A DNA stretch of 64,000 bases from Candidatus Nomurabacteria bacterium. GTDB taxonomy: Bacteria; Patescibacteriota; Patescibacteriia; UBA1558; GWA2-36-10. The stretch covers positions 23,244 to 87,243 of the forward strand of contig JACKFO010000002.1 in assembly GCA_020632415.1 (NCBI GenBank), read 5' to 3'. Below, one piece after another: positions 149 through 60,952 of the stretch. The notes below the pieces were generated by a model. The model searched no databases. It saw only the letters and a list, made by a program, of their open reading frames with translations, and was not told where the DNA came from. The position numbers and the translations under genes are program-made. Within the stretch, counting starts at the first letter, position 1. Every line of letters starts with the position of its first letter.

Positions 149-778
149 TTATTTTTTTAGCCAGCGGACTCCTAGATAAACAAAGGGTGTATCGATGACA
201 GCCAGGATTAATTTTAGAGCATAATAAGGTAAAATCAAGTGCCACATAAAGGCAAAGTCAAATTTTGGTGCAATTTGGTAGAACGCTAAGAAGATAAAAA
301 TGCTTGTGTCGATAAACTGACTAACTGCAGTGGATAGATTATTACGCAGCCATAAAAATCGTCCCTTGGTTTTTTCCTTCCAAAAATTAAAAGACCAGAC
401 ATCATGCATTTGGCTAATCAAAAAAGCAACGATGGAAGCCAAAAAGAAACGTGCAGAGTTTTGAAAGATTGTTACAAAAGCTTCGTTATTTGTATATCGT
501 TCAGCAGGATTAAGCCAAACTGTCCATTGAATGAAAAGAAAGCTTAAAAATAAAATAATTGCCGTAGTCCAGATTAAGCTGTTGACTATTTTTTTGCCTT
601 TTACCTCTTCTAAAATATCAGTGATCAAGAAAGTGATTGGCATTAGCCAGATGGTGACGGAAATAGTCAGTGAACCTAAATTATAAACTTTGGCGCCGAC
701 AATATTAGCGAGCATCAAGGAGCTGATAAATAAAGCTTGTAAAAATAAAATTTTATTATCTTGAGTTATTTTAATCAT
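149..778 (-). CDS. yhhQ: YhhQ-family (DUF165/VUT) queuosine-precursor transporter, polytopic membrane protein
   Basis: Blocks co-linear with E. coli YhhQ (e.g. ...QMHDVWSFNFW...NNLSTAVSQFIDTSIFIFLAF...). ATG at 776-778; 4-nt overlap with dprA stop. Confidence 0.75.
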   Translation of the reverse strand: MIKITQDNKILFLQALFISSLMLANIVGAKVYNLGSLTISVTIWLMPITFLITDILEEVKGKKIVNSLIWTTAIILFLSFLFIQWTVWLNPAERYTNNEAFVTIFQNSARFFLASIVAFLISQMHDVWSFNFWKEKTKGRFLWLRNNLSTAVSQFIDTSIFIFLAFYQIAPKFDFAFMWHLILPYYALKLILAVIDTPFVYLGVRWLKK

Positions 779-3200: not shown

Positions 3201-6104
3201 ATGGCAAATTTCAAAGATCAAGAAAAAGAAATATTGGATTTTTGGGAAAGTGATCAAACTTTTCAGAAATCTTTAGATAAGACAGCGCCTCTTGGTGACT
3301 ATCTTTTTTATGATGGGCCACCATTTGCTACTGGCACGCCGCATTATGGACACTTGGTAGCTAGTATTATGAAAGATGTTGTGCCTCGTTTTTGGACGAT
3401 GCGTGGTTATCACGTTGAGCGTAAATGGGGTTGGGATTGTCATGGTTTGCCAGTCGAAAATATTGTTGAAAAAGAATTAGGCTCAAAATCTAAGCAAGCA
3501 ATTGAAGAAATGGGCGTCGCTAAATTCAACGAACTTTGTCGTTCTAAAGTCTTGAGTTATGTTACTGAATGGGAAAAGACGGTTAATCGGATGGGACGTT
3601 GGGTTGATATGAAAAATGCTTACCGCACGATGGACATTGAATTCATGGAATCTGTTTGGTGGGTTTTTAAAGAGCTTTGGGATAAAGATTTGATTTATCA
3701 AGATTATCGTTCGATGCATATTTGTCCTCGTTGCGAAACAACTCTTTCTCAACAAGAAGTTTCGGAAGGCTATAAAGACATCAAAGATTTATCGGTTACA
3801 GCGGAGTTTGAATTAATCAATGAGCCCGGTACTTTTGTTTTGGCTTGGACGACCACTCCTTGGACTTTGATTGCTAACGTTGCTTTAGCTGTTGGTGAAA
3901 ATATTGATTATCTAAAAGTAGATACGGGCAAAGATAAATTAATCATTGCCAAAGAGTTAGTTGAAAAATTTTCTAATGATTTAGGTGATTATAAAGTTCT
4001 TGAAGAATTTAAAGGTAAAAATTTAATTGGTCAGAAATACAAACCACTTTTTGGTTATTATGCAAGTGACGAAAATTTAGAAAATAGAGAAAATGGCTGG
4101 CAGATTGTGTCCGCAGATTTTGTGACAACTGAAGAAGGAACTGGCGTTGTCCATATTGCTCCAGCTTTTGGTGAAGATGATATGAGCTTGGGCAAAGAAA
4201 AGAAGCTTCCTTTTGTCCAGCATATCGGAATGGACGGCGTTATTAAAGAAGAAGTTGCAGATTTTAAAGGTTTACATGTCAAGCCAATAGATGATGTGCA
4301 AGCTACTGATGTGGCGATTATCAAATATTTAGCAGGCAAAGAATTATTATTTGCTAAAGAAAAATATGAACATAGCTATCCGCATTGCTGGCGTTGTGAT
4401 ACTCCATTATTGAATTATGCTACTTCGTCTTGGTTTGTAGCCGTGACTAAAGTAAAAACCAAAGCACAAGAAACGGCTAAGAAGATAAATTGGACTCCAG
4501 ATCACATCAAAGAAGGTCGTTTTGGAAAGTGGCTAGAAGGAGCTCGTGATTGGTCTATTTCTCGTCAAAGATTTTGGGCTTCAGTGATGCCAATTTGGCA
4601 ATGTCAAAAGTGTGAGGAAAAAGTAGTATTTGGTTCAGTGGCTGATTTGGAAAAAGCTAGCGGCCAAAAAGTGACTGATTTGCACAAGCATATTGTTGAT
4701 GAAATCACTTTTGCTTGTAAGTGCGGAGCTACGATGAAACGTGTGCCCGATGTTTTGGATACTTGGTTTGATTCTGGCTCGATGCCATATGCGCAGATGC
4801 ATTATCCATTTGAAAATGAAGAAAAATTTAAGAATGTTTTTCCAGCCAAGTTTATTGCCGAAGGAATTGATCAAACTAGAGCTTGGTTTTATTATCTCCA
4901 CATTTTAGCTACTGCTTTGAAGGGCTCTCAAGCTTTTGATAACGTGATTGTCAATGGCATTGTTTTGGCTGAAGATGGCAAGAAGATGTCCAAGAAATTA
5001 CAGAATTATCCAGATCCAAATGAAATAATGGAACAATACGGCGCTGATGCTTTGCGTTTGTATTTATTATCTTCACCCGTAATGTTGTCTGAGAATTTAT
5101 CTTTTGTCGAAAAAGATCTGCAAACAACTTATCGTCGTTTTATTGGCTTGTTGCAAAATGTCTTTAGTTTTTATCAGATGTTTAAAGGTGAGGCCAAAAT
5201 AGATGGAGATAAATTACCACAATTAGATAATGATTTAGATAAATGGATTGTTGCTAAATTTGTTACTTTACAAAAAGAAGTTACGGAAGCAATGGAGGAA
5301 TATAATTTAGTCAAAGCCACTCGTCCTTTGTTTGATTTTGTTGATGAGCTATCTACTTGGTATTTGCGACGTAGTCGCGATCGTTTCAAAGGCGACGATC
5401 AAAAAGATAAGGAGCAAGCTATTCAGACTTTGGCTTTTGTCTTAAAACAATTTGCCCGCACTATTGCACCGTTTACTCCAATGACCGCTGAGATTATCTG
5501 GCAAGAGTTTTCGCCAGAAACTTCTGTGCACTTGGAAAGCTGGGGAGAATATGATGAAAAATTAGTGGATCTTGATATTTCAAAGAAAATGGACGCTGTC
5601 CGTCAGATTGCAGAGGCGGTTCATGCGCTTCGTGCTGGAGCTGGCATGAAAGTGCGTCAGCCATTAGCTAGTTTAGTGGCTGATGAGAAATCTGGTTTAA
5701 CTGGACAAGAAAATTATCTAGAGCTTTTAGCTGATGAATTAAATGTAGAGCAAGTTAAGATTGGCGAAGTAAAAGAAGAGGCTGGTTGGTTAGTTGCTGA
5801 AGTAAATGATTTTAAAGTAGCCTTAGATACAAACTTAACTGACGATTTAAAAGAAAGAGGAGTAATGCGTGAATTAATTCGTTTTATTAATGCTTTAAGA
5901 AAAGACTCTGGTTTACAACCAAGTGATAGCCCAGTAGAAACCTATCAAACTGATTCTCCAGTTTTATTAGCTGTGATTGAAAAGTACAAAGAAGAAATCA
6001 TCAAAGCAACTTCCGCTGGTGATTTAGAAAAAGTAGATTCAAGTCCTGAAAAACAAGTTGTTCAAAAAATAAACAGTGAAGAAATTATTTTAGGTATCAA
6101 ATAA
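3201..6104 (+). CDS. ileS: isoleucyl-tRNA synthetase
   Basis: Class I HIGH (PHYGHL) and KMSKK (KMSKKLQN) motifs, editing domain, CxxC zinc knuckles; 967 aa. Confidence 0.95.
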   Translation: MANFKDQEKEILDFWESDQTFQKSLDKTAPLGDYLFYDGPPFATGTPHYGHLVASIMKDVVPRFWTMRGYHVERKWGWDCHGLPVENIVEKELGSKSKQAIEEMGVAKFNELCRSKVLSYVTEWEKTVNRMGRWVDMKNAYRTMDIEFMESVWWVFKELWDKDLIYQDYRSMHICPRCETTLSQQEVSEGYKDIKDLSVTAEFELINEPGTFVLAWTTTPWTLIANVALAVGENIDYLKVDTGKDKLIIAKELVEKFSNDLGDYKVLEEFKGKNLIGQKYKPLFGYYASDENLENRENGWQIVSADFVTTEEGTGVVHIAPAFGEDDMSLGKEKKLPFVQHIGMDGVIKEEVADFKGLHVKPIDDVQATDVAIIKYLAGKELLFAKEKYEHSYPHCWRCDTPLLNYATSSWFVAVTKVKTKAQETAKKINWTPDHIKEGRFGKWLEGARDWSISRQRFWASVMPIWQCQKCEEKVVFGSVADLEKASGQKVTDLHKHIVDEITFACKCGATMKRVPDVLDTWFDSGSMPYAQMHYPFENEEKFKNVFPAKFIAEGIDQTRAWFYYLHILATALKGSQAFDNVIVNGIVLAEDGKKMSKKLQNYPDPNEIMEQYGADALRLYLLSSPVMLSENLSFVEKDLQTTYRRFIGLLQNVFSFYQMFKGEAKIDGDKLPQLDNDLDKWIVAKFVTLQKEVTEAMEEYNLVKATRPLFDFVDELSTWYLRRSRDRFKGDDQKDKEQAIQTLAFVLKQFARTIAPFTPMTAEIIWQEFSPETSVHLESWGEYDEKLVDLDISKKMDAVRQIAEAVHALRAGAGMKVRQPLASLVADEKSGLTGQENYLELLADELNVEQVKIGEVKEEAGWLVAEVNDFKVALDTNLTDDLKERGVMRELIRFINALRKDSGLQPSDSPVETYQTDSPVLLAVIEKYKEEIIKATSAGDLEKVDSSPEKQVVQKINSEEIILGIK

Positions 6105-6833
6105 ATGATTTTTAAAACAGAAGCTTTTGTTTTGCGCGCCATTCCTTGGCGAGAAGCTGATCGTCTTTATTATTTTTTTACTCCACACGAAGGAGTAATT
6201 ACCGGAGTAGTCAGGGCAGCTGCTAAATCTAGCAGTAAGTTAGCTGGACAGCTTTTGCCTTTTGCTAAAGTACAAATTATGATTGGCCGAGGAAAACTAG
6301 ATCATGTTGCGGGCACTAGTACGATTAAGGATTACCAAAATTTAAGAACGGATTTAAAAAATTTGTCATTAGCCGCTTCAATCGTGGAGTTATTTTTGGG
6401 AGAATTATCCAGCGGCGCCAAACAACAAGAGTTTGATTTATTAGAGGAAGTTTTTACTTTATTAAATGAAGAAAATTTAAAATCAGAGGATAAATTGATT
6501 TTGGTCAGAACTTTTTTGTGGAAATTTTTATCCCTAAGTGGTTGGCAGCCACAGTTAGATGCTTGTTTTGTCTGTCAGAAAAGTATTTCGCAAGGAGCGT
6601 ATTTGCCAGGACGTGGTTTAGTTTGTCATCAGCACAATTTGGCTGGGGCTTTGTTAATTAGTCCAGATTTGCTACAATTTTTAAGAGAGATCTTAAAAAC
6701 ATCATTAAAAGATAGTTTGGATTTAAAATTAAATCCAGAATTAAATAAAGAATGGTTGCAGGCTTCTCAGGCTTATTATCAAGAAGTCTATGATCGACCA
6801 TCAAGAGCATTAAAATTATTTGTTTATGGCTAA
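6105..6833 (+). CDS. recO: DNA repair protein RecO
   Basis: N-terminal OB fold plus C-terminal Cys4 zinc finger (CFVCQ...CHQH); ATG immediately after the ileS stop. Confidence 0.8.
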   Translation: MIFKTEAFVLRAIPWREADRLYYFFTPHEGVITGVVRAAAKSSSKLAGQLLPFAKVQIMIGRGKLDHVAGTSTIKDYQNLRTDLKNLSLAASIVELFLGELSSGAKQQEFDLLEEVFTLLNEENLKSEDKLILVRTFLWKFLSLSGWQPQLDACFVCQKSISQGAYLPGRGLVCHQHNLAGALLISPDLLQFLREILKTSLKDSLDLKLNPELNKEWLQASQAYYQEVYDRPSRALKLFVYG

Positions 6834-8625
6834 TGTAAGAAAGCGCAGCATTGATTCAGTAAAACGTTCAAGTTTGCGAAAACAATCATATGAAGCGCCG
6901 GCAATCAAAAGAAAAACTTCAAGCAAAAGACCAGTGCCTCAAGAATATCGCACTTTCAAAAAAGCGCCCAAAGGCAGAGGCGGCTTGGTTTTTTTCTTGT
7001 TTTTGTTATTTATCGCCGCGATTTCTGGATTTTGGTATTGGAATAACAATGGCTCGACTAATATTACAGATAGTTTAAAACTAGAAATTACTGGACCAGA
7101 AAAAATTGTTTCTGGAGACGAAGTGACTTATCTGGTTGAATACACAAATTTGGATACTGTTGCTTTGACAGCTATGGAGCTTAGTGTTTATTGGCCAGCG
7201 GGATTTTATTTTGATGAGGCTTCTCTTGAGCCAGAAAATGCTAATGCCAAAACTTGGCTCCTTGATGATTTGCCTGCCGGACAAAAAGCTAGCTTGGAAA
7301 TCAAAGGGCAATTGGTTGGTAAAAAAGGTGAAGAACATGATGCAATTTTTAGCTTAGATTATCAGCCAGCAAATTTTCATTCAGATTTTGTAGCTAAGCA
7401 AACAGTAACTACTAAAATTACTGATCAAAAGATTGAGCTTGAAGTTCAAGGACTTGAAAAAACCCTGGTTGATACAGAGCAAGAGATAAAAATAGTTTAT
7501 CGTAATTTGAGTGAAGAAGTTTTGACTGATTTATATTTAGATGTTTTATATCCAGATGATTGGCAGATCGAAAGTGTTGAGCCAGCTAAAGAAGGTCAGT
7601 ACTGGGTCAGTAGCTTAGAGCCAGAAGAAGAAAAAGAAATCGTGCTCAAAGGATATTTTTCCATTGATAGTCGCGCAGATCAGTTGTTAGTGGCTGAAGT
7701 TGGAAATATGTTTGACAATGATTTTCGTCGCTTGATGCGAACTGAGCATCCGATTGTAGTTGTTAATCCACAATTTGATTTAAATTTGACAATCAATGGT
7801 CAAAAGGGTGATCAGCAAGCTAATTGGGGAGATGTTTTGCGTTATCAATTGGAAGTGACCAATGCCAGTGATAGCGATATTGCTGACGTTGAAGTAACTG
7901 CTTTGCTTGCTGGAAAACTTTTGAACTGGGATAGTTTGGATAGTGTCGGACAATATTTAGAAGAACGTATTGTTTGGACCAACGAAGAAGATCAAGGCTT
8001 AGCTTCTTGGTCAGCTGGTGAAAAGAAAATCTTTACTTGGGAAGTAAAGATAGTTTCTAGTCCTCAGCCAGAAAGAAATTTAGAAAATATTATTAAGATT
8101 AATATCGCCGGTCTTAATGACTGGGAGCAATTGGTGACAGTTTCCAAGTTGACAGTGGGCGAAAGTTTGACTTTTAACAATGGAATTTATTGGCATTTGG
8201 GCGGCAGACGTGTTGGTAGTGGTTTGTTGCCACCAAGAGTCGGTGAAGAAACTCAATATTTAGTTGTTTGGTCTTTACCACAATCAACTGGTAATTTTGC
8301 TGATGTAAAAGTAGAAACTGTTTTGCCACCAAATGTTGATTTTGTGGATCAGGCAGAAATTCAAGAAGGAACCTTGTCTTTTGATGAAAGTTCTAGATCA
8401 TTGACTTGGTCTTTGAATGATTTTCAAGACGTTTTGTTACCAGTGACTGCTTCTTTTATGATCTCAATCACTCCAGACAATGAAGACAAAGGACAGACTT
8501 TGACTTTATTAAATCCAGTGACAGTTAGCGCCAGTGGCACTGAAGATGTGGTAGTAAGAAGTAAAATTTTGAAAACTTCAGACGTTGTAGCAGAGAGTTC
8601 TGAGCCAATTGGTATTGTGCAATAA
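6826..8625 (+). CDS. membrane-anchored surface protein with ~110-aa tandem beta-sandwich (DUF11/CARDB-like) repeats
   Basis: Basic cytoplasmic tail, one TM helix, then repeated units (EITGPEKIVSGDEVTYLVEYTN... / ...NLTINGQKGDQQANWGDVLRYQLEVTN...). The track start at 6820 is a TTG; ATG at 6826 (MANVRK) is more likely. Confidence 0.6.
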   Translation: MANVRKRSIDSVKRSSLRKQSYEAPAIKRKTSSKRPVPQEYRTFKKAPKGRGGLVFFLFLLFIAAISGFWYWNNNGSTNITDSLKLEITGPEKIVSGDEVTYLVEYTNLDTVALTAMELSVYWPAGFYFDEASLEPENANAKTWLLDDLPAGQKASLEIKGQLVGKKGEEHDAIFSLDYQPANFHSDFVAKQTVTTKITDQKIELEVQGLEKTLVDTEQEIKIVYRNLSEEVLTDLYLDVLYPDDWQIESVEPAKEGQYWVSSLEPEEEKEIVLKGYFSIDSRADQLLVAEVGNMFDNDFRRLMRTEHPIVVVNPQFDLNLTINGQKGDQQANWGDVLRYQLEVTNASDSDIADVEVTALLAGKLLNWDSLDSVGQYLEERIVWTNEEDQGLASWSAGEKKIFTWEVKIVSSPQPERNLENIIKINIAGLNDWEQLVTVSKLTVGESLTFNNGIYWHLGGRRVGSGLLPPRVGEETQYLVVWSLPQSTGNFADVKVETVLPPNVDFVDQAEIQEGTLSFDESSRSLTWSLNDFQDVLLPVTASFMISITPDNEDKGQTLTLLNPVTVSASGTEDVVVRSKILKTSDVVAESSEPIGIVQ

Positions 8626-9746
8626 TGTTTAAACTAAATAAAACATCAAAAAAATCGCAAGCAAGATTAGGAGTGCTAACCACTGCTCGAGGCAAGGTTA
8701 GTACGCCTTTTTTTATGCCAATCGCTACTAAAGCAGCGATCAAAAGTTTGACTGTTCAGGATGTCCAAGATTTGGGAGCGGAAATAATTTTATCAAACAC
8801 TTATCACAATTATTTAAGGCCCGGTTTGGAAGTGATAAAAAAACACGGTGATCTTCATGATTTTATGGATTGCGATTTACCGATTTTGACTGACAGCGGC
8901 GGTTATCAGGTTTTTAGTTTATCAAAACTTAGAAAGATCAAAGGTGATGATATAGAATTTCAATCACATATTGACGGCAAGACTTATATTTTGAATCCAA
9001 AAAGAGTGATCGACATCCAAAAAGTTTTGGGTTCTGACATTATGATGGTGTTGGATGAATGCGTTGGTCTACCTACTACTCGCGCAGAGGCAGAGATGGC
9101 CCTAGAAAGAACTACCCGTTGGGCCAAGATTGCTTTTGATTATAAACATCGTTTAAATCAAAAATCAGCCAAAATCAAAAAACAATTGATGTTTGGAATT
9201 GTTCAAGGCGCTGATTTCAAAGATTTACGTTTGAGGTCTTTAGAAGAATTGTTGGCTTTGGAGAACAAAACTGCTCATTGGGATGGCTTGGCAGTTGGTG
9301 GCTTGGCAGTTGGTGAGCCGACAAAAGTGATGTACCAGGTGTTAGATGATCTGGTTTTTAAAATGCCAGAAAATCGTCCGCGTTATTTAATGGGCGTTGG
9401 TTATCCAGAAAATATTGTGGAAGCGGTCAAGCGAGGGGTTGATATGTTTGACTGCGTGATCCCAACTCGTGAAGCACGGCACGGCAAATTGTATTTATGG
9501 AAAGGAAAACCAGACCCTACCAAAAAAGATTTTTATCAGACTATTAATATTTCCAATGCAAAATTTGCTAGTGATAAAAAATCAATTAACAATAGCAATC
9601 TCAAAAATTATTCCTTAAGCTATTTACATCATTTATTTAAAACACAAGAGCCTTTGGCTTTGCGACTAGCAACTTTAAATAACCTTAACTTTTATTTAGA
9701 GCTGATGTCCGAGATTAGAAAAGCGATTAAAAGTGGTAAATTATAA
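8625..9746 (+). CDS. tgt: queuine/7-deazaguanine tRNA-ribosyltransferase (TGT fold) lacking the canonical zinc site
   Basis: Catalytic blocks LTDSGGYQVF, DEC, MGVGYPENIVEAVKRGVDMFDC present. The C-terminal CxCxxC...H zinc ligands are replaced (INNSNLKNYSLSYLHHL ... TLNNL). Confidence 0.85.
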   Translation: MFKLNKTSKKSQARLGVLTTARGKVSTPFFMPIATKAAIKSLTVQDVQDLGAEIILSNTYHNYLRPGLEVIKKHGDLHDFMDCDLPILTDSGGYQVFSLSKLRKIKGDDIEFQSHIDGKTYILNPKRVIDIQKVLGSDIMMVLDECVGLPTTRAEAEMALERTTRWAKIAFDYKHRLNQKSAKIKKQLMFGIVQGADFKDLRLRSLEELLALENKTAHWDGLAVGGLAVGEPTKVMYQVLDDLVFKMPENRPRYLMGVGYPENIVEAVKRGVDMFDCVIPTREARHGKLYLWKGKPDPTKKDFYQTINISNAKFASDKKSINNSNLKNYSLSYLHHLFKTQEPLALRLATLNNLNFYLELMSEIRKAIKSGKL

Positions 9747-9748
9747 AG

Positions 9749-9771
9749 CCAGCTAAATAGCTGGTTTTTTT
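9749..9771 (+). terminator. rho-independent terminator (tgt)
   Basis: ccagct-aaat-agctgg hairpin plus T7 run; a second GC hairpin with T-run follows at 9776-9799. Confidence 0.6.
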
Positions 9772-9835
9772 ATCCGCCTCGCCGGCGGGGCTGTTTTTTA
9801 CAAATTTATTTTGTACTGATCATTCAAAAAGTTAA

Positions 9836-10039: not shown

Positions 10040-10133
10040 AGTAATTTCTCCTGGATGAACATTCGTTATTAGAAATACTAGGGATTAATTTTTATTTTGT
10101 CAATTGAAGCTAAAAAATGCTATAATAATTTCA

Positions 10134-10505
10134 ATGACAGGAAATATTTTTCTACAAACAATCAAAACTCTCTTCCTAGATTTTCTAGGGGAGATTTTGT
10201 ATTTTCCTTTTTGGTGGTACGGTAGTGGTTTGAAAAAAATTGTTTTATATATCTGGCAAAGTACCAGAAGATTAGCTGGAAATTTGTCTTTGCGCATTAT
10301 GCTCAAAAATCTTTTCCGCCCAATGTACGGTCAGTATGATCGAGCTGGTCGGGCAATTAGTTTTTTTATGCGCATCATTTTATTGTTTAGTCGTTTAGTT
10401 GTTTTTATTGTGCTGAGCATAATGTATCTTTGTATTTTATTAGTCTGGATGATTTTGCCGATTTTGATTCTTTGGCAGTTGCTTAGAAATTTGCATATTT
10501 TATGA
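10134..10505 (+). CDS. hypothetical polytopic membrane protein
   Basis: ATG 7 nt downstream of a perfect TATAAT (10121-10126); 3-4 hydrophobic helices; end overlaps the ClpC-like start. Confidence 0.5.
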   Translation: MTGNIFLQTIKTLFLDFLGEILYFPFWWYGSGLKKIVLYIWQSTRRLAGNLSLRIMLKNLFRPMYGQYDRAGRAISFFMRIILLFSRLVVFIVLSIMYLCILLVWMILPILILWQLLRNLHIL

Positions 10506-13207
10506 AGGCTATCAGATTCAAACAATGTGATCAGTGCCAAGACAAGAGCAAATCCTGTAATGCTTGTTTTGGAATAAAAAACTTTTATTTTTCTAATAAC
10601 AATTTTTTTTATTGGGATAAAAAAATAAATCGCAGCTCAATCTTGGTCAGAGAGTTGAGATTTTTTTTGGACTTGATAATCAATGCAGCTTTGATTGCGG
10701 CGACAATTTTTAGTGTAGTTTTAATTTATCGGATTTTAAATAGCGTTGAGTTTGATCCGAGGAATTTTTTGGATTTTTTGATTAGCCCTAGTCGTAATAA
10801 TTTTACCCTACTGATTTTACTTGTTTTGGACATGTATCTTTTTTATCGACTTTCTTTACCGGCTCAAAAAAGAGATTTGCAAGCCAAGCGACTTAAGGAT
10901 ACTAGTAAATTTACTCGTTATAATTTTGCTGAGAGCTTAAATCAAGAAACGGAAATGATTTTGGACCGAGCTTGGCTTTATGCTTTGCACAAAAAAGTTT
11001 GGCCAGTGACGGTTTGGCATTTACTTTTTGTTTTATTAAATGACAAAGACATTCGAGTTGTTTTAGCTCGCTTGGGAGTTGGTAGTAAAAATTTGCAAGA
11101 AATTATCGATAAGAATTTAGCTAGCTTAGTTGATAAAAATAATAATAATTCTTTAAGCAGAAAAGAAAAATTAGATTTAAGTTTTGAATTAAAAGAAGTT
11201 ATTTTAAACGCCTATTGGCATTCTAGCGTTGTTCGTAAGGATCAATATATCAAAGAGATTGATTTGCTAGCTGGTTTGGTTGCTTTGAGTCAAGATATCA
11301 AAGACTTTTTTTATGATTTTGAAATCGATGATGATAAAATAGACAATGTGATAGCTTGGATTGGTATCAATCTGCGCTTGGCAGAACGCTATCGTCGTTA
11401 TCGTGGTCGCTCGGCTTTTAAGCCAAAAACTGGCATTAATCGTGGCTACACGGCTATTGCCACGCCTCTTTTGGATAGTTTTTCAGCTGATTTAACTCAG
11501 GCCTCGCGCTTTGGTCGTTTGCCACTTTCTGTTGCTAGAGAAGCAGAAATTGCCGAAGTAATGTCAACAATGGAAAGTGATTTGGCTTCAGTAGTTTTGG
11601 TTGGGCCCAATGGAGTTGGTAAAACAAATATTATTGAAGGCATCTCTAATCGAATGATGGCCGAAGAAGTGCCAGCTATTTTTCAAGATAAAAGGTTAGT
11701 TAGTATTTCTTTGCCAATGTTAGTTTCCGGAGCATCAGAATCTGGCCGTTTGGAAGAGAGATTTTTAGGCATTTTAAACGAAGTGGCAATTTCTGGAAAT
11801 ATTATTTTAGCGATTGATAATATTCATAATTTGGTTGGCATCAGCTCAGCAGGACGAGAGGGCGTGGATTTATCAGAAGTTTTGGCTGCTGAAATTAGAA
11901 ACAAAAAAGTTTTGTTAATTGCTTCGACCAATAATCAAGATTATGTAAAATATTTAGAAGGAAGTGAACTTGGTCAAGCTTTGCGTAAAATAAATATCGA
12001 AGAGCCAAATAAAAATCAGGCAATTCAAATCATGGAAGCAAATGTCTCTTGGCTAGAAAATAAATATAAAATTTATTTTACTTACAATGCTCTTGAAAAA
12101 ATTTATCAGCTCACGGATCGTTATTTGCCTGATATGTATTTGCCAACCAAGGCTTTAAATATTATGGAAGAGATTGCCGTCAGAGTTTCTAAGTCAGGAA
12201 GACAGGATATGCTTGTTCGGGCAGAGGATGTAGCAGAATTGATTTCTCATAAAACACAAATTCCATTGACCCAAGTTTCTGATCAGGAATCTGTTAAGTT
12301 ATTAAATTTAGCAGAAGAAATGCATCAAAGAATAGTCGGGCAAGATGAGGCTGTCCAGAAGGTAGCAACTGCTTTACAGCGAGCCAGAGCAGAACTCAGG
12401 GATCAGAGTCGTCCGATTGCTAACTTTTTGTTTTTGGGACCAACTGGTGTTGGTAAAACAGAACTAGCAAAAACTGTGGCTGAGAAATATTTTGGTGCAG
12501 AGGAGAACATGATTCGTTTGGACATGTCTGAATACCAAAACAAAGATAGTTTGGATCGGCTTTTAGGCTCCAATACTCAGAGCACGCCTGGCATTTTGAC
12601 TGAGGCAGTCAGACACAAGCCTTTTGCGTTATTGTTGTTAGATGAGATTGAAAAAGCACACCCAGATATTTTAAATGTTTTTTTACAAGTCATGGAAGAT
12701 GGTCGTTTGACTGACGCTTTGGGCAGAACCGTTGATTTCACCAATGTGATTATGGTTGCTACTTCCAATGCCGGCACAGAGTATATTCAGCAACAAATTG
12801 AAGCTGGTCAAAAGATTGAAGATTTCCAAGAAGATTTAATCAAAACAAAACTACAGGGAATTTTTAGACCAGAATTTTTGAATCGTTTTGACAGTGTAGT
12901 GGTCTTTAGACCGTTAAATGAAAGTGAGATTTTACAAATCGCTGGTTTGATGCTAAATAAAGTTAAAAATAGATTAGAAGCCAAAGGCATTTATTTCGAA
13001 ATTACAGAGTCTGCACAAAAAGAATTAGCTCAACTTGGCTTTGATCCGGTATTTGGCGCTCGTTCTTTAAGAAGAGTGATTCAAGAAAAAGTAGACAATG
13101 CTCTGGCTAAGTTTTTGTTGCAAGGCAAGATTGGTCGACGAGACGTAGTGGTTTATGACCAAGGCGGAGAAATAAGTATCAAAAAAGCAGCTACTTATCA
13201 AAAATAA
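10502..13207 (+). CDS. ClpA/ClpC-like double-AAA+ ATPase with N-terminal Cys4 zinc ribbon and two predicted TM helices
   Basis: CDQCQ...CNAC ribbon; TM segments; Clp_N repeat; Walker A/B x2 (GPNGVGKT/ILAIDNIH; GPTGVGKT/LLLLDEIEKAHPD); sensor and C-terminal domain. Confidence 0.8.
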   Translation: MKAIRFKQCDQCQDKSKSCNACFGIKNFYFSNNNFFYWDKKINRSSILVRELRFFLDLIINAALIAATIFSVVLIYRILNSVEFDPRNFLDFLISPSRNNFTLLILLVLDMYLFYRLSLPAQKRDLQAKRLKDTSKFTRYNFAESLNQETEMILDRAWLYALHKKVWPVTVWHLLFVLLNDKDIRVVLARLGVGSKNLQEIIDKNLASLVDKNNNNSLSRKEKLDLSFELKEVILNAYWHSSVVRKDQYIKEIDLLAGLVALSQDIKDFFYDFEIDDDKIDNVIAWIGINLRLAERYRRYRGRSAFKPKTGINRGYTAIATPLLDSFSADLTQASRFGRLPLSVAREAEIAEVMSTMESDLASVVLVGPNGVGKTNIIEGISNRMMAEEVPAIFQDKRLVSISLPMLVSGASESGRLEERFLGILNEVAISGNIILAIDNIHNLVGISSAGREGVDLSEVLAAEIRNKKVLLIASTNNQDYVKYLEGSELGQALRKINIEEPNKNQAIQIMEANVSWLENKYKIYFTYNALEKIYQLTDRYLPDMYLPTKALNIMEEIAVRVSKSGRQDMLVRAEDVAELISHKTQIPLTQVSDQESVKLLNLAEEMHQRIVGQDEAVQKVATALQRARAELRDQSRPIANFLFLGPTGVGKTELAKTVAEKYFGAEENMIRLDMSEYQNKDSLDRLLGSNTQSTPGILTEAVRHKPFALLLLDEIEKAHPDILNVFLQVMEDGRLTDALGRTVDFTNVIMVATSNAGTEYIQQQIEAGQKIEDFQEDLIKTKLQGIFRPEFLNRFDSVVVFRPLNESEILQIAGLMLNKVKNRLEAKGIYFEITESAQKELAQLGFDPVFGARSLRRVIQEKVDNALAKFLLQGKIGRRDVVVYDQGGEISIKKAATYQK

Positions 13208-13221
13208 TCAAAAAAACTTAA

Positions 13222-13243
13222 GGAAAACCCTTAGGTTTTTTGT
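13222..13243 (+). terminator. AT-rich rho-independent terminator (ClpC-like)
   Basis: aaaccc-tta-gggttt-type hairpin plus T-run. Confidence 0.45.
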
Positions 13244-13307
13244 ATTTTTAGCAAAATTAAGTTATAATAAATTTACTATTGACAAAATTGTCATCTCGTG
13301 GTAATTT
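13238..13307 (+). promoter_or_regulatory. tandem sigma70-like promoters with operator-like dyads upstream of the high-GC island
   Basis: TTGTAT-N17-TATAAT (13238-13268) and TTGACA-N17-TAATTT (13279-13307). Palindrome TGACAAAATTGTCA overlaps the second -35; dyad CTCGTG-N8-CACGAG at 13295-13313. Confidence 0.4.
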
Positions 13308-13398
13308 CACGAGAACTTGTCAAAAGTCCGTTCTTTGACATCAGAGTTCAAAATCAAATTGAATACAACTGGGAAACCAAGAGAGGGAGAGAAATCTC

Positions 13399-14772
13399 AT
13401 GAAGAAGCTCAGTTCGCTCTGCATCGCCTTGCTGGCGATCGTTTTTGCTCTGCGTCCGGCTTCGGCCGAAACCTTCACCGTTCCGGACGATGGGACGATT
13501 CAGGATGGTGTGGATGTCACCGGCAGCGGTGATGATATCTACATCAGTCCGGGCGTGTATACCGAAACGGTGTACTTTGATGCGGACACCGTCAGCATCC
13601 ACGGCTTGGAGGCCGACCTGACCACCATCCGCAACGGCACTTTCGTCTTCAACGGCGGATCCACAATGGAAACCGTGCTTCATGATCTCGGCTTCGATGG
13701 TCCCGATGGCGCGGCGATCAGCCTTTTCAATGGCTCTGGCGTGACGGTTCAGAACGTGTTGATACGTGACAAAGAGGGAACGGCCGCGATTTTCGTGGGC
13801 AGCAATTCACATCTCGTCCTCAGCACGGTCTGGGCCTGGAACAATTCCAACGGTGCTCTGCAGGGCTATGCCACGGCCAGTAGCAATTTCGGTCAAATCG
13901 AGATCTACAACGCTCGTTTCGAAGGTAACGCCTTAAACGGTATTCCGACGATGATTCCGCAGATCGAGAATGGCCTTCTGACCTATCGACCCTACCAAAG
14001 CGATGATCGCAACCAGAACTTTGGTGGCGGCATCTACTTGCCTCTGGGCGGCGGTCGAGTCTCGATCTGGCGCAGTCTCTTGGCCAACAATGACGTGAAT
14101 TTCTTGGGCGGCGCTATCAGTGGCGGCAACGATGCCAACATTGATTCAACGATCGTCGATCTGGATCTCTGCACCATTTTCGGCAACGATGCTGGGCAGA
14201 ATGGATCGTTTTTCTATGGTCGCAATGGGAAAATTCGACTGAACATTTCCAATAGCCTGTTCGTCGACAACGGCATCAACGCCTTCGTCGGCAATGTCAG
14301 CTTCGAGGGGCACAACGTGGCCTGGCCGAACAACTACGACATTCCTGGCCTGATCGTCGAGGATCCTCTTTTCTGCGATCCGGATGGTCGCAATTTTCAG
14401 CTCGGCTACAGCTCCTTCTGCCTCCCCGAAAACAACCAGTGGGGGGAGCAGATCGGCGCCTTCGGCGCCGGTGAATGCGATGGAGTCGGTGTCGAGGCGA
14501 TCCAACAGCCGATCAACTTCGGCCTGACAGCCCATCCCAATCCTTTCAATCCCACGACCACCATCAACTTCAATCTGCAGTCGGCCAACCACGTCTCGCT
14601 GATCATCTACGACCTGGAAGGTCGGCTGGTGGCCAATCTGCTCGATGGCATGCTCGGTTCTGGACAGCACAGCGTCAACTTCGACGCCAGCAAGCTGTCC
14701 AGCGGCAGTTACTTCGTCTACATGACCACCAACGACCAGCAGCAGGTGATGAAGTTGCTGCTGCTCAAGTAG
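13399..14772 (+). CDS. secreted beta-helix-like protein with T9SS (Por) C-terminal sorting domain
   Basis: Signal peptide (LLAIVFALRPASA); Gly/Asn-rich parallel beta-helix-like repeats; C-terminus ...PNPFNPTTTINFNL...IYDLEGRLV...SGSYFVYM...KLLLLK typical of the T9SS CTD; SD GGGAGAG. Confidence 0.7.
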   Translation: MKKLSSLCIALLAIVFALRPASAETFTVPDDGTIQDGVDVTGSGDDIYISPGVYTETVYFDADTVSIHGLEADLTTIRNGTFVFNGGSTMETVLHDLGFDGPDGAAISLFNGSGVTVQNVLIRDKEGTAAIFVGSNSHLVLSTVWAWNNSNGALQGYATASSNFGQIEIYNARFEGNALNGIPTMIPQIENGLLTYRPYQSDDRNQNFGGGIYLPLGGGRVSIWRSLLANNDVNFLGGAISGGNDANIDSTIVDLDLCTIFGNDAGQNGSFFYGRNGKIRLNISNSLFVDNGINAFVGNVSFEGHNVAWPNNYDIPGLIVEDPLFCDPDGRNFQLGYSSFCLPENNQWGEQIGAFGAGECDGVGVEAIQQPINFGLTAHPNPFNPTTTINFNLQSANHVSLIIYDLEGRLVANLLDGMLGSGQHSVNFDASKLSSGSYFVYMTTNDQQQVMKLLLLK

Positions 14773-14827
14773 ATCTCAATCACCCGAAGGGCGGGTGTTG
14801 ACTTTATCTCTATGGAAAGGAGTGAGC

Positions 14828-15340
14828 ATGAGGAAACTCATTGTTCCGCTGCTGGCAGTGTTCTTGCTGCTGGCAGGCTGCGACTGCGTTCAGGCTCGCG
14901 GACCGACCACCGTCGATGAGAGTACGGGTCTGGTCTGCGACAACATGGGCAACTCCTGCGACATCATGATCAGCGGCCTCGGCTACGACGAACTCGCCTG
15001 GGAGGTCGAGTTCTCCGGCGTGGACATCAGCGACAACTCCTTCGTGGCGTCCGATTCCAGTCGGGACCTGCTGATCCTGGCGGTTGACAGCGGCGTCAAC
15101 GAAGGCTGTTTCGAGATCAGCTTCTATCCGGTGCTGATGAATTCGACGATCACCGGCGAGGCCTTCTCGAGCGACAAGATGGACACGGCGACGGCATTCC
15201 TGGCCAACATCGGCGAGGGCATCAACGGCGAAAACGGAGGCCGGCAAGTCCTCAAGTGTCTGATCGACAGCCAGTTCGTCAACGGCTACATGATCTGCCG
15301 CACCGACAACCGCGACGGGACGATCAAGTCCGCCGCCTGA
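14828..15340 (+). CDS. lipoprotein (lipobox LLAGC), unknown function
   Basis: Signal peptide plus lipobox; SD GGAAAGGAG; high GC. The track start at 14795 is a likely upstream extension. Confidence 0.55.
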   Translation: MRKLIVPLLAVFLLLAGCDCVQARGPTTVDESTGLVCDNMGNSCDIMISGLGYDELAWEVEFSGVDISDNSFVASDSSRDLLILAVDSGVNEGCFEISFYPVLMNSTITGEAFSSDKMDTATAFLANIGEGINGENGGRQVLKCLIDSQFVNGYMICRTDNRDGTIKSAA

Positions 15341-15395
15341 CCCAGGCTGTGTGCTAGAGGCGTCTAGTGCACAGCCAGAACTCTGAATTCCGCAC

Positions 15396-15436
15396 CCCCG
15401 CATCCGAGCTTGACTTGGATGCGGGGTTCTTTTTTT
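15396..15436 (+). terminator. GC-rich rho-independent terminator closing the high-GC island
   Basis: ccccgcatcc-(11-nt loop)-ggatgcgggg followed by TTCTTTTTTT; an additional hairpin at 15346-15378. Confidence 0.7.
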
Positions 15437-15528
15437 ACACCGATTATTAGCTTTGGAGTCAATATTGCTAAATATACTGATATTAGTTATAATTTTAATG
15501 ATTTTTATAGATTAAAATATTCTGTTTT

Positions 15529-16917
15529 ATGCAGCAAGAACGCAAATTTGATAAAGTAGTAAGTTTGGCAAAAACCAGAGGCTTTGTTTTTCCTTCTTCT
15601 GAAATTTATGGAGGCTTAGGTTCTATTTATGACTACGGTCCTTTGGGAGTTGAGCTAAAAAATAACATCAAAAAAGCTTGGTGGGATTTTATGAATGCTC
15701 GTCGTGATGTAGTTGGTTTGGATTCTGGAATTTTGATGCATCCAAAGATTTGGGAAGCTTCTGGACACGTTCAAGGCTTCAATGATCCTTTGGTGGATTG
15801 CAAAAAATGCAAAAGCCGTTTTCGAGCTGATCATTTGTTAGAAAATTTAGGAATTAAACCAGATTTTCGTCCGGGCGCCAAAATTGATTTGGCTGATGTA
15901 AGGTGTCCAGAATGTGGCGGAGAATTGACGGACATTCGTCAGTTTAATTTGATGTTCAAAACTTTTATTGGTCCATTAGAAGAAGAAGCAAACCAAATTT
16001 ATTTACGTCCAGAAACTGCTCAAGGAATTTATGTTAACTTTCTAAACGTTAAAGAAAGTATGCGTTTGAAAATGCCTTTTGGTATTGCTCAGATCGGCAA
16101 AGCTTTTCGTAATGAGATTACTCCGGGTAATTTTATTTTCCGTATGCGAGAATTTGAGCAAATGGAAATGCAATATTTTGTTGAAGAAAAAGAAGCTAAA
16201 AAAGTTTTTAAAAATTGGCAAGAATTACGTCGAGAATGGTACTTATCTTTGGGAATCGATCCAAAGAATTTGAAATTCAGAGAGCATGCCAAGGATGAAT
16301 TAGCGCATTATGCTCAAGCGGCAATTGACATTGAATATAATTTTGCTTTTTCAGGAGACGATAGCTTCAAAGAATTAGAAGGCGTGCATCATCGTGGTAC
16401 TTGGGATTTGAGTCAGCATCAGAAATTTTCTGGCCAGAAATTAACAGTCAAAGATGAAGAAAACAAAGACTATCTACCAACCGTGATTGAAACCTCTATT
16501 GGCGCTGATCGAGCTTTTTTAGCATTTTTGATGGACGCTTATACAGAAATTGATGGCGGTCGTAGCACAACTACCGAAAGCATCAAAGAAAAAGAAGTGG
16601 TTTTAAAACTTCATCCAAAATTAGCGCCGATTAAAATTGCTATTTTGCCACTTTCCAAAAAAGAACCACTAGCTGATAAAGCCAAAGAAGTTTATGAGTT
16701 GTTAGTAAAAAATTATCGTATTCAATACGATGAAACTGGTTCAATCGGCAAGCGTTATCGCAGGCAGGATGAAATCGGTACTCCGTATTGTGTGACTGTT
16801 GATTTTGATACTTTGGAAAATAACCAAGTGACGGTTAGAGACAGAGATACAATGCAACAGGAGCATCTTGATATTGCTGAGTTGAAAAATTATTTTCAAA
16901 AGAAGTTTGATTTTTAA
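15529..16917 (+). CDS. glyQS: glycyl-tRNA synthetase (alpha2 type)
   Basis: Class II motifs; Cys4 insertion (CKKCKSRF...CPECGG); anticodon-binding C-terminus. Confidence 0.9.
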
Positions 16918-32549: not shown

Positions 32550-35500
32550 ATGTTTAAAAATCAAGAAAAAAAGAAAAAAAAGCTTAAGGAGCCTGTTTTT
32601 TTGTTATTTAAATTAAAAAAAAGTTTGATCTTTGGTTTAATTTTAGGTTTAATTTTTCAGACCTTTAGCCTTAATGCTCCTCAAGTACAAGCTGCCACTT
32701 TATTAAGCGATGATTTTACGGGTACAACTATTGATACCGCTAAGTGGGTAGAATATGATGCGGCAGGTAGCGGTGGAGAGGCTGGTAATATTCAGCAAAA
32801 TGATTCTTTATCAGTTACTAGTAGTAATAATGGAACCACAGCTCTTGTGTCAGTGGATAGTTTTTCTGCGGATGGTTTAGAAATTTCTTCTGTGATTACT
32901 ACAAGTAATGGTAAGTTCATTTTGGGATACGGAGATCGTGAGTGGTCATTGGCAGGACATAGAGGATATTTACTTTATAATTCTGGTTCTAATATTCTGG
33001 GTTTAGCTTGGAATAATAATGTATTAAAGCAAAATGTTGCTTGTGGCACGATGACCAGTGGAGCCAACTATAAAATGAAAATTATTCCTACTGGTTTTGA
33101 GGTCTATAAAAATGATGCTTTGCAATGTACCGTTACCCCACTTACTGCTGATTTGGTAGATGGTTATTCAATATTTTTAGAATCAAATGATGCGATTTCT
33201 TATTTTGATGATCTTTTAGTCGTTGGTACTGTCAGTGAGGAAGCAACTGTGCCGGCCGCTCCTACTATTGGTACGGCTATAGCTGGTGATACAGAAGCAA
33301 GTATAAGTTTTACTCCGGGATCAAATGGTGGTTCAGCAATTACGGGTTATACTGTGACTTCAAATCCAGGAGCCATTACAGCAACAGGTTCTGCTTCGCC
33401 GATTACAGTCACTGGTCTCACTAATGATACAGAATATACTTTTACAGTGACTGCTACTAACGCCATTGGCACTTCTGATCCTTCGGCTGCTTCTAATGCT
33501 GTGACGCCACACGTAACAGATATTTTTGACGAAGCAGCTTTGTGGCTCAAAGCAGATGCAATTACTGGCTTAAATGATGGCGATGCAGTTACTACTTGGG
33601 GAGATAGCTCTGTCTATGCTTTGGACGCAACACAATCAACAGTAGATTATAAACCAACTTATAAAACAAATATCATAAATTCTCAGCCGATAGTTAGATT
33701 TGACGGTATCAATGATTTATTGCTTACTCCTTCTACAGCCGCCGCTGCTGGTATCACGGTTTTTACGGTTGTGAAAAGTACAGATACGAGTTCTGGCTAT
33801 TTTGCTGCTTTTGGTGGTAATAATAATGCAATTATTACGGGTTTTAGTAATGCTTTATGGGAATATTATAGCAGCCCGAGAACTACTTTGGGCAATATAT
33901 CTACTTCTGAATTTCAAATTATCACCTCAAGAGTGGGCTCGAGTTTGACGAATCCAATTAGTTTGGGTGCAGATGCTGGTAGAGTCGCTCCTTGGGCAGG
34001 AGATGTGGCAGAATTTCTTGTATTCAAATCAGTTTTGTCAGATACTGACTATAATACCGTGTATGATTATTTAAATAATAAATATTTTTCAGCCGTCGAT
34101 CCAGTTGAGCCAGATGCGCCAAGCGAATTAGTAGCTACGCCAGCTAGTGAACAAATGTTGCTTTCTTGGACAGCACCGGCAAGTGATGGCGGAGCAACAA
34201 TTACAGATTATGTTGTAGAATACAAATTAAGTTCTGAGCCTACTACTTGGACTACTTTTGATGATGGTGTTTCTACTGAAACTACTGCTACGGTCACGGG
34301 GCTAACTAATAATTTGAGTTATGATTTTAGAGTGTCGGCAACTAATTCAGTAGGCACAGGTGCTGTTTCAGATACAGCAACGGAAACGCCAGCGCTCAGC
34401 GTACCCTCAGCACCTATTAGTTTGTCAGCTAGTGGTGGTAATAGTGATGCTACTCTTTCTTGGACAGCTCCCGCAAGCGATGGTGGAGCAGCGATTACAG
34501 ATTATGTTGTAGAATATAAACTAAGTTCTGAGCCTACTACTTGGACTACTTTTGACGATGGTGTTTCTACTGAAACTACTGCGACGGTTACGGGGCTAAC
34601 TAATAATTTGAGTTATGATTTTAGAGTGTCGGCAACTAATTCAGTAGGCACAGGTGCTGTTTCAGATACAGCTACTGCCACAGTAGAGTATGTTTTGTTA
34701 ATAGATGATTTTACTGGCACAACTATTGATTCTAGCAAATGGCTGGAGATCGATACTGCTGGCGACGGTGGTGATACTGGCAATGTCCAACAAAATGATT
34801 CTTTGTCGGTTGCTAACAGTGAATCTGGTAGCGACGAAGGGCTTAATGCTTTAGTTTCAGTAGATAGTTTTGATGATAACGATTTAGAGATTTCTGCCAA
34901 ACTGACCGCCGGAGGCCTGACCTTATTTGGCTATGGTGATCGTCAGTGGAATTTGGCTGGCAATAAAGCATATATAATTTATTTAAGTGGCGGCACCTTA
35001 ATGGGCTTGACTTGGCATGACGCTTCTTACGCCAATTCTAATACAAGCTGCGGTACTTATTCCGCTGGGGCAACTTATAAAATGACGATTATTTCCACTG
35101 GCTTTGAAGTTTATAAAAATGATGTGTTGCAGTGCACGGTTAGTCCGGGAGACGGTAATTTGGTAAATAATAAGCCAATATTTTTAGAGTCCAATGGCGC
35201 TACTGCTAGTACTTTTGATGATGTTTATGTAACTGGTACTTATACTGAGCCGACCGCACCAGAGGCTCCGACTATTGGTACTGCTACAGCGGACAATGCG
35301 CAAGCAACTATAACGTTTACCCCTGGTTCATCAGGAGGTTCTCCGATCACCAGCTACACTGTCAGCTCAGATCCAGGTGGCATTACTGCTACTGGTAGCT
35401 CTTCGCCTATTACAGTGACTGGGCTAACTAATGACACTGAATATACTTTTACAGTAACTGCTACTAATGCTATTGGTACCTCTGATCCGTCAGCGGCCTC

Positions 35501-39345: not shown

Positions 39346-39412
39346 AGCCGGGTGGTTTTTATTTTTTCTCGAGGCTAGCCAAAAAATGCTTTTTTCTGCT
39401 AAAATAGACTAT

Positions 39413-60915: not shown

Positions 60916-60952
60916 TTTTGATAAATAAAAAATAAAAAGATAATCTAAAAAA

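Follow-up and report, generated by a model that had tools for sequence, protein, structure and literature searches.

The open reading frame (ORF) at positions 8625-9746 (+ strand) of a 64,000-nucleotide stretch of DNA from Candidatus Nomurabacteria bacterium (GCA_020632415.1, contig JACKFO010000002.1, positions 23,244 to 87,243; hereafter the window) encodes a bacterial tRNA-guanine(34) transglycosylase (Tgt) of 373 amino acids, in which all four ligands of the structural zinc site are missing. The protein is most likely the organism's single, orthologous Tgt and still working, with the zinc site probably replaced by the packing of side chains, so that no zinc would be needed. Judged by its descent and its catalytic apparatus, it is a Tgt orthologue and a variant of this enzyme, not the canonical zinc metalloprotein Tgt.

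The family assignment was obtained from several models. Pfam TGT (PF01702) matched the protein end to end with 424.1 bits (cut-off 26.3), the NCBIfam equivalog TIGR00430 matched over the full length with 424.6 bits (cut-off 306.75), and full-length alignment to the Zymomonas mobilis tRNA-guanine transglycosylase (TGT) gave 43-44% identity (E 2e-92). The archaeosine-TGT model TIGR00432 reached 118.2 of the 350 bits required, its best-matching stretch being residues 8-117, and the DpdA model NF041059 scored 15.9 bits (cut-off 200). The chain stops at residue 373, past helix F, whereas the archaeosine TGT (arcTGT) carries C-terminal C1, C2 and PUA domains. NCBI lists an identical protein, named Tgt, from 'Candidatus Nomurabacteria bacterium' (842-kb contig), and a Logan assembly of independent origin contains the protein among the same neighbour genes.

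The former zinc-binding segment was located by alignment with Z. mobilis TGT and by comparison with two relatives from the candidate phyla radiation (CPR), P0111 and P0116. A preliminary description of the window had placed it at 9585-9680 (+), and these positions do encode I321-N352 (INNSNLKNYSLSYLHHLFKTQEPLALRLATLN). The structural site C-x-C-x2-C...H that marks a canonical bacterial Tgt is absent from this segment. In the HMMER alignment, Z. mobilis 'DSECHCAVCQKWSRAYIHHL...MTEHNIAF' stands opposite 'KSINN----SNLKNYSLSYLHHL...ATLNNLNF' of the window protein, such that Z. mobilis E317-C320, including the ligands C318 and C320, falls opposite a gap of four residues, C323 is aligned with L326 and H349 with N352. 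The loss of all four ligands and the exchange of His for Asn, both claimed in the preliminary description, were thereby confirmed; its assignment of Ile, Asn and Leu to the three Cys is one of two possible placements, the other one leaving two ligands in the gap and Leu326 at the third. Under gapped or ungapped placement, no zinc ligand survives. The shortened loop I321-N322-N323-S324-N325-L326 stands for CxCxxC and is followed by helix E (YSLSYLHHLFK), and at the beginning of helix F, N352 takes the position of the His ligand. The whole protein has three Cys residues only (83, 146 and 277), so that its last 96 residues are Cys-free, as had been stated for the C-terminal region, and its His residues are found at positions 61, 74, 78, 115, 175, 218, 286, 335 and 336.

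To our knowledge, every solved structure of the TGT family (bacterial Tgt, QTRT1, QTRT2 and arcTGT) contains a Cys3His zinc site. In all three domains of life, the ligands C-x-C-x2-C...H are described as 'absolutely conserved' (PMC3074131), and the zinc domain is regarded as one of two hallmarks of TGTs (PMC6165067). Within the literature searched, which left most subscription-journal papers outside its coverage, no zinc-less bacterial Tgt was described, and the only reported erosion of the ligands found concerns the DpdA of phage 9g, where two of the four are gone (PMC5699537).

All catalytic blocks upstream of the lost site are intact, as the preliminary description had noted: ILTDSGGYQVF (88-97), LDEC (143-146), LMGVGYPE (255-262) and DMFDCV (273-278). 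The general acid/base Asp90 (8892..8894, +) of the LTDSGGYQ block corresponds to Z. mobilis Asp102 in gap-free register. In the alignment, Asp144-Glu145-Cys146 (9054..9062, +) matches D156-E157-C158, the preQ1-type (7-aminomethyl-7-deazaguanine) substrate-pocket motif GGLAVGE from G225 to E231 (9297..9317, +) matches residues 229-235, and the catalytic nucleophile Asp276 (9450..9452, +) of the MFDCV block matches Asp280. Roles of the Z. mobilis equivalents in catalysis, substrate binding and dimer formation have been described (PMC5699537, PMC3074131, bioRxiv 10.1101/2020.09.01.277731).

Of the 120 nearest 90%-identity clusters, which are 58-100% identical to the window Tgt and belong to Patescibacteria/Parcubacteria wherever a name is given, 118 share the Cys-less loop that is shorter by four residues; only P0111 and P0116 differ, with C-D/N-C-x-x-C and the His. 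Since the loop is common to so many clusters and the identical protein was recovered in two assemblies, chance or a sequencing error is not the explanation. Conservation of single residues was counted in 116 full-length clade members (cluster representatives). D90, D144 and D276 are invariant (116/116), and so are the motif GGLAVGE with V229 (Z. mobilis V233) and K40 (K52), while C146, the equivalent of Z. mobilis C158 and E. coli Cys145, is present in 115. The dimer-interface positions K40, F80, Y329, Y333, H336 and E342, which correspond to K52, F92, W326, Y330, H333 and E339 of Z. mobilis, are present and 92-100% conserved (Y333 in 116/116, H336 and Y329 each in 114/116, E342 in 109/116). 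Given the roles described for these residues (K52, F92, W/Y/F326, Y330, H333 and E339; bioRxiv 10.1101/2020.09.01.277731), the homodimer interface appears to be kept in the window Tgt.

Constraint is also visible at the lost site itself. The position of I321 is I, L, V or F and that of L326 is L, F or I in all 116 members, N322 is Asn in 100, and N352 is Asn in 110 and His in the remaining 6. Mean pairwise identity within the clade amounts to 77% in helices E-F versus 70% in the barrel. Because the residues that replace the ligands are constrained and helices E-F exceed the barrel in identity, purifying selection seems to act on the subdomain. Such a pattern of conservation is what would be expected of a working enzyme, not of a decaying gene.

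An AlphaFold2 model, computed with a 60-sequence alignment, reached a mean predicted local distance difference test (pLDDT) value of 94 and a predicted template modelling (pTM) score of 0.91. In ten-residue blocks over 311-370 the pLDDT was 95-98, and it was 95 for residues 321-330 of the former zinc loop, although AlphaFold folds zinc sites confidently without the metal and a high pLDDT is therefore no proof of metal independence. Foldseek superposed the model on Z. mobilis TGT (PDB 1ozm/7apm) with a template modelling (TM) score of 0.91-0.92 and a root-mean-square deviation of 1.4 A over ~376 columns. The predicted fold is hence that of Tgt, a triose-phosphate isomerase (TIM) barrel with a C-terminal helical subdomain, as in the Z. 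mobilis and E. coli enzymes (PDB 1pud, 1q2r), and the model shows that the sequence is compatible with it. Together with the equivalog match and the conserved catalytic, pocket and dimer residues, the predicted fold supports the suggestion of a zinc-independent fold variant made in the preliminary description.

The locus links the zinc-less protein to canonical Tgt of sister genomes. In the window, IleRS (3201-6104) is followed by the conserved run recO-DUF11-tgt, which consists of recO (6105..6833, +; Pfam RecO_N and RecO_C), a 601-amino-acid protein with DUF11/CLIPPER repeats (6820..8625, +; Pfam DUF11) and tgt itself (8625..9746, +). Downstream, a small hydrophobic membrane ORF (10104-10505) lies between tgt and the gene of a ClpB-like double-AAA+ ATPase (10502-13207), with which it overlaps, and a class-II aminoacyl-tRNA synthetase (aaRS; 15529-16917) comes after them. 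A canonical zinc-type Tgt, P0111 of Komeilibacteria (GCA_043801745.1), is encoded in a MerR-IleRS-RecO-DUF11-Tgt-...-ClpB-like-aaRS locus like that of the window. Occupation of the same slot means that the zinc and zinc-less forms are positional orthologues, that is, one gene at one locus. The order recO-DUF11-tgt was also seen in L081, L087, L089-L092 and L099 and recurs in many Parcubacteria contigs, and a DUF11 protein adjoins tgt as 17 of the neighbours of 33 zinc-less loci and in L081, L087, L089-L100 and L099. The small-ORF and ClpB-like arrangement downstream of tgt is kept in related genomes, too. One Tgt-like ORF was found in the window and one in each of 80 related loci; a second tgt, for which all of these were searched, did not appear.

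With these sister Patescibacteria enzymes (P0111; also P0116, L005 and L008) the window Tgt shares 58-59% identity and a hairpin insertion of ~11 residues, while they keep C-D-C-x-x-C and the His that it has lost. The insertion (~294-304) is found CPR-wide in zinc and zinc-less forms and sets the window Tgt apart from the Z. mobilis and E. coli enzymes, as do the missing ligands and the shorter ligand loop. It was considered as a compensation for the lost site and rejected, since zinc-type CPR Tgt carry it as well.

The preliminary description had presented the substitution as a trait of this one gene. It is instead a widespread and recurrent state of bacterial Tgt. CxCxxC was absent from 33 of 79 full-length Tgt of the GTDB species genomes most similar to the query and from 91 of 224 sequences (~40%) of a joint alignment, both samples being biased towards relatives of the zinc-less query, so that the fractions are not global frequencies. 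Besides many Patescibacteria, the zinc-less GTDB relatives include a single-cell genome of Pelagibacteraceae (SAR11; L055), two Neomarinimicrobiota (L068 and L075) and one Bacteroidota genome (L072), and a further Bacteroidota case is P0211. When 1.84 billion cluster representatives were searched exhaustively with HMMER, many zinc-less ones were returned, among them cluster P0136, which includes the Tgt of cultured Devosia species (e.g., WP_212658164.1). Compared gap-free with Z. mobilis, the Devosia enzyme shows C318S, C320N and H349I and keeps C323 alone. By annotation and alignment, these proteins of other lineages are bona fide Tgt with a destroyed CxCxxC, as is the window Tgt; they are of independent origin, with other replacement residues and a full-length loop, and some of them keep one Cys, such as C323 of Devosia, or the His.

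In the joint alignment, the fourth ligand column holds His in 133/133 sequences with CxCxxC, and in those without it Asn in 49, His in 18 and otherwise I, Q, A or another residue. This distribution shows that the columns are correctly registered and that the four positions change together in evolution. Fitch parsimony counted 33 changes on a rough neighbour-joining tree from barrel columns; given the crudeness of this tree and the frameshifts in a few sequences, the number can serve only as a maximum. Independent loss of the zinc site in at least four phyla is nevertheless a firm reading of the alignments. As a separate observation, many GTDB records named 'uncultured Gammaproteobacteria bacterium' (CAY.../CAZ...) have a CPR-type Tgt and CPR-type synteny and look mislabelled.

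Three states of the site can be distinguished in related Patescibacteria. The first is the canonical CDCxxC...H (e.g., L008, ...IDKNCDCELCRNYS...TSHNV). The second is a full-length but Cys-less loop of the form S-K-[ILF]-x-x-L...N (e.g., L007, ...INKDSKIKELREYT...TLNNI; in Falkowbacteria and Kuenenbacteria ...DSRFPVL.../...NSKFPEL...TLNNL), in which Ser stands for the first Cys, an aliphatic or aromatic residue for the second, Leu for the third and Asn for the His. The third is the loop of the window Tgt, shorter by four residues. It is plausible that these states form a series of loss, and in the simplest reading hydrophobic and Asn side chains would first have taken over from the ZnS3N cluster, with the loop being trimmed afterwards.

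The following mode of action is proposed for the window Tgt. The enzyme would act as a homodimer that exchanges G34 of tRNAs with GUN anticodons (Asp, Asn, His and Tyr) for preQ1, a predicted activity that would proceed via a covalent intermediate at Asp276 with Asp90 as acid/base. The Cys3His zinc knuckle, which holds the start of helix F to the loop that precedes helix E, would be replaced by side-chain packing. At the ligand positions, the aliphatic I321 and L326 together with N322 and N352 would probably create a small plug held by hydrophobic contacts and hydrogen bonds, and zinc would thus not be required by the enzyme. The 7-deazaguanine substrate would probably not be made de novo and would be imported by a transporter encoded in the window.

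This transporter, of the YhhQ/QPTR queuosine-precursor family (COG1738, Vut_1), is encoded at 149..778 on the - strand, ~8 kb upstream of tgt, and was recognised by Pfam Vut_1 (159.6 bits) and TIGR00697 (146.9 bits, cut-off 50.95). A homologue is present at the same relative place in the Komeilibacteria locus L001, and L002 has one as well. The pocket of the window Tgt, with Cys146 and GGLAVGE including V229, is of the preQ1 type of E. coli and Z. mobilis. Cys145 of E. coli is the residue that selects preQ1 (PMC3074131), and GGLAVG is found in E. coli, Bartonella and Pelagibacter, whereas TGTs that salvage queuine have GG[LS][AS]G (PMC11570991). For genomes with 'tgt + QPTR only', such as Pelagibacter and Bartonella, in which a GGLAVG pocket is combined with QPTR, salvage of preQ1 has been proposed (PMC11570991), and the Pelagibacteraceae Tgt L055 is zinc-less, too. 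Uptake of preQ1 or of preQ0 (7-cyano-7-deazaguanine) by QPTR and subsequent insertion by Tgt is therefore suggested as the most likely route. Neither a preQ1 riboswitch nor another relevant RNA element was detected in the window by Rfam and tRNA scans.

QueA and QueH occur in Komeilibacteria and other Patescibacteria, and queA adjoins tgt in zinc-type loci only. In Komeilibacteria and related Patescibacteria (L084, L085, L086, L088, L108 and L109), queA belongs to a conserved ruvB-(queH)-queA locus that is remote from tgt. In seven of eight loci, from Omnitrophota, a Planctomycetia metagenome-assembled genome, a gammaproteobacterium (Nitrincola) and a probable CPR bacterium (L039), queA lies within ~100 bases of tgt, and in the remaining one (L054) it is located ~1.6 kb upstream.

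Several points speak against a working zinc-free Tgt, in addition to the limit of the fold prediction given above. Work on E. coli TGT by Chong and colleagues in 1995 is said to have found that mutation of zinc ligands abolishes function, and loss of the structural site would accordingly not be trivially tolerated. The plug of I321, L326, N322 and N352 is derived from conservation and not from observed contacts. No biochemistry on any zinc-less Tgt was found in the literature searched. Among the window ORFs scanned there was no queA, queH/queG, queF or queC/D/E, and no Patescibacteria QueA among the relatives found by protein search was traced to an assembly with a zinc-less Tgt. The reported inactivation of the E. 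coli enzyme and the lack of queA and queH in the window would also suit a catalytically compromised remnant or pseudoenzyme that has a non-catalytic role or is being lost, all the more in the strongly reduced genomes of CPR bacteria. Such a remnant is very improbable in view of an intact ORF that is probably coupled in translation to its upstream gene and followed by terminator-like hairpins. In over 116 cluster representatives (58-84% identity), moreover, the catalytic and pocket residues are invariant or nearly so and the C-terminal helices surpass the barrel in conservation, which is the signature of selection for catalysis and dimer formation. A metal might still be held by other ligands from nearby His, Asp, Glu or Asn residues, for instance H335, H336 and E342. 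The two His, both highly conserved, lie one helical turn past the loop that once carried the Cys, and His occurs at the fourth ligand column in the 6 clade members and 18 zinc-less sequences mentioned above. However, conservation of the pair (Z. mobilis H332/H333) is just as high in zinc-containing Tgt, where H333 donates a hydrogen bond at the dimer interface and is no metal ligand. The old ligand positions are now taken by aliphatic residues and Asn, which are poor zinc ligands, and no new conserved Cys, His or Asp has appeared in the subdomain, all of which makes a relocated metal site improbable.

A functional zinc-free Tgt could also have shifted its base specificity and use queuine or preQ0 from a host or the surrounding community, as the Tgt of Chlamydia does with queuine. 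CPR bacteria are thought to be host-dependent, the QPTR family carries preQ0, preQ1 or queuine depending on the lineage, and the findings on queA and queH would fit a supply from outside. The pocket nevertheless has the E. coli-type motif and Cys146 instead of GG[LS][AS]G, and V233, the equivalent of V229, blocks binding of queuine in Z. mobilis TGT (PMC11570991), which renders a shift of this kind unlikely. The preliminary description had further raised a sub-functionalised paralogue or a DpdA-like enzyme that puts 7-deazaguanines into DNA. A precedent in DNA-modifying relatives exists in phage 9g DpdA with its two missing ligands (PMC5699537), and tgt neighbours recO, with dprA in the same region. 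Neither proposal was supported. The DpdA and arcTGT models stayed far below their cut-offs while the Tgt equivalog was passed, and the bacterial preQ1 pocket is kept together with K40, the equivalent of K52, which contacts U35 of the tRNA. A canonical Tgt sits in the identical slot of a sister genome, each locus has a single Tgt-like ORF, and no dpdB/dpdC-like or other dpd genes occur among the window ORFs scanned. No dpd-type or queuosine-pathway families were seen among the 25 top Pfam families listed for 113 neighbours of the 33 zinc-less loci, which were DUF11, CDP-OH_P_transf and similar ones. Orthology by synteny, the model scores and the lack of dpd neighbours therefore remove both proposals, which are left as hardly credible.

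If the zinc-free Tgt is functional, the question arises why the site has been given up so often. It is possible, though doubtful, that the loss is a repeated and selected 'zinc-sparing' or streamlining adaptation, with a different non-metal packing each time, which would uncouple queuosine-type modification of tRNA from the supply of zinc. The losses may then belong to small-genome or oligotrophic groups (Parcubacteria/CPR, SAR11 and Neomarinimicrobiota) and to the free-living Devosia. A genome-wide avoidance of Cys and zinc motifs was rejected, because the ClpB-like protein, IleRS, PheS, HisRS and the class-II aaRS of the window keep paired CxxC motifs. The ClpB-like ATPase has an N-terminal CxxC-x6-CxxC (CDQC...CNAC), which shows that zinc-ribbon-type motifs are not given up in general by this organism.

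Further features were noted around tgt and elsewhere in the window. The TAA stop of the DUF11 gene shares one base with the ATG of tgt (TAATG). This suggests that a surface-repeat protein and a tRNA-modification enzyme are co-transcribed and translationally coupled, a pairing without an evident functional rationale. Directly 3' of the tgt stop, two terminator-like hairpins with T-runs were found by consensus matches only (9749..9799, +), CCAGCTAAATAGCTGG followed by TTTTTTT and then TCCGCCTCGCCGGCGGG followed by GCTGTTTTTT. The region 13207-15529, between the ClpB-like gene and the class-II aaRS, has a G+C content of ~51% versus ~35% for the genome and contains overlapping ORFs on both strands, one of which (13399-14772, +; 457 amino acids) carries a Por_Secre_tail domain for C-terminal sorting by the type IX secretion system. 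In the Komeilibacteria locus L099, the ClpB-like gene is directly followed by the class-II aaRS with no counterpart of this region, which for that reason looks like an insertion that was possibly acquired horizontally.

A protein of 2019 amino acids (32550-38609) combines multiple fibronectin-III domains with one SASA/GDSL-type carbohydrate esterase domain, a purple-acid-phosphatase N-terminal domain and, at its C-terminus, a peptidoglycan-binding domain; it may be a very large surface enzyme of relevance to an episymbiotic way of life. A PcrA/UvrD-type helicase of 983 amino acids (39386-42337) has a C-terminal Cas4/AddB-like nuclease domain (TIGR00372, residues 852-978), and this helicase-nuclease fusion represents a single-chain AddA-like architecture. 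At the end of the window, two tandem paralogues (59320-60915 and 60944-64000) share a similar signal peptide and a TrbC/pilin-like N-terminus; the former matches the Mbov_0395 pilin-like conjugal-transfer family weakly. The latter stays open for more than 1019 amino acids and continues beyond the window end, which explains the apparently empty 3 kb in the ORF list.

As regards known systems, the window Tgt corresponds to the Z. mobilis enzyme in its catalytic Asp triad, its preQ1 pocket (Cys158 and GGLAVGE) and its K52/F92/Y330/H333/E339 interface. Like DpdA, it belongs to the TGT superfamily, but DpdA has an arcTGT-like pocket, a DNA substrate and dpd gene clusters. In C+/C- ribosomal proteins and in the lid of adenylate kinase, Cys4 or Cys3His zinc sites have repeatedly been replaced by hydrophobic and hydrogen-bonding residues, with fold and function being retained. 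These proteins have folds unrelated to that of Tgt, for which a zinc dimorphism was not described in the literature searched. The window tgt appears as an ordinary housekeeping gene in function and context, whose zinc-site variant is apparently unreported and common in uncultured and some cultured bacteria.

The finding leaves the supposed role of Tgt unchanged. If the enzyme is active without metal, a textbook statement on the TGT family would be corrected, and the zinc-less forms would be natural experiments on the replacement of a structural zinc knuckle at a dimer interface. Tgt would then also be taken off the list of obligate zinc users when the zinc demand of streamlined microbes is modelled. 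Devosia is a cultured organism in which metal-free Tgt activity can be tested, and if the 'zinc-sparing' reading holds true, these enzymes would be natural templates for a metal-free TGT fold.

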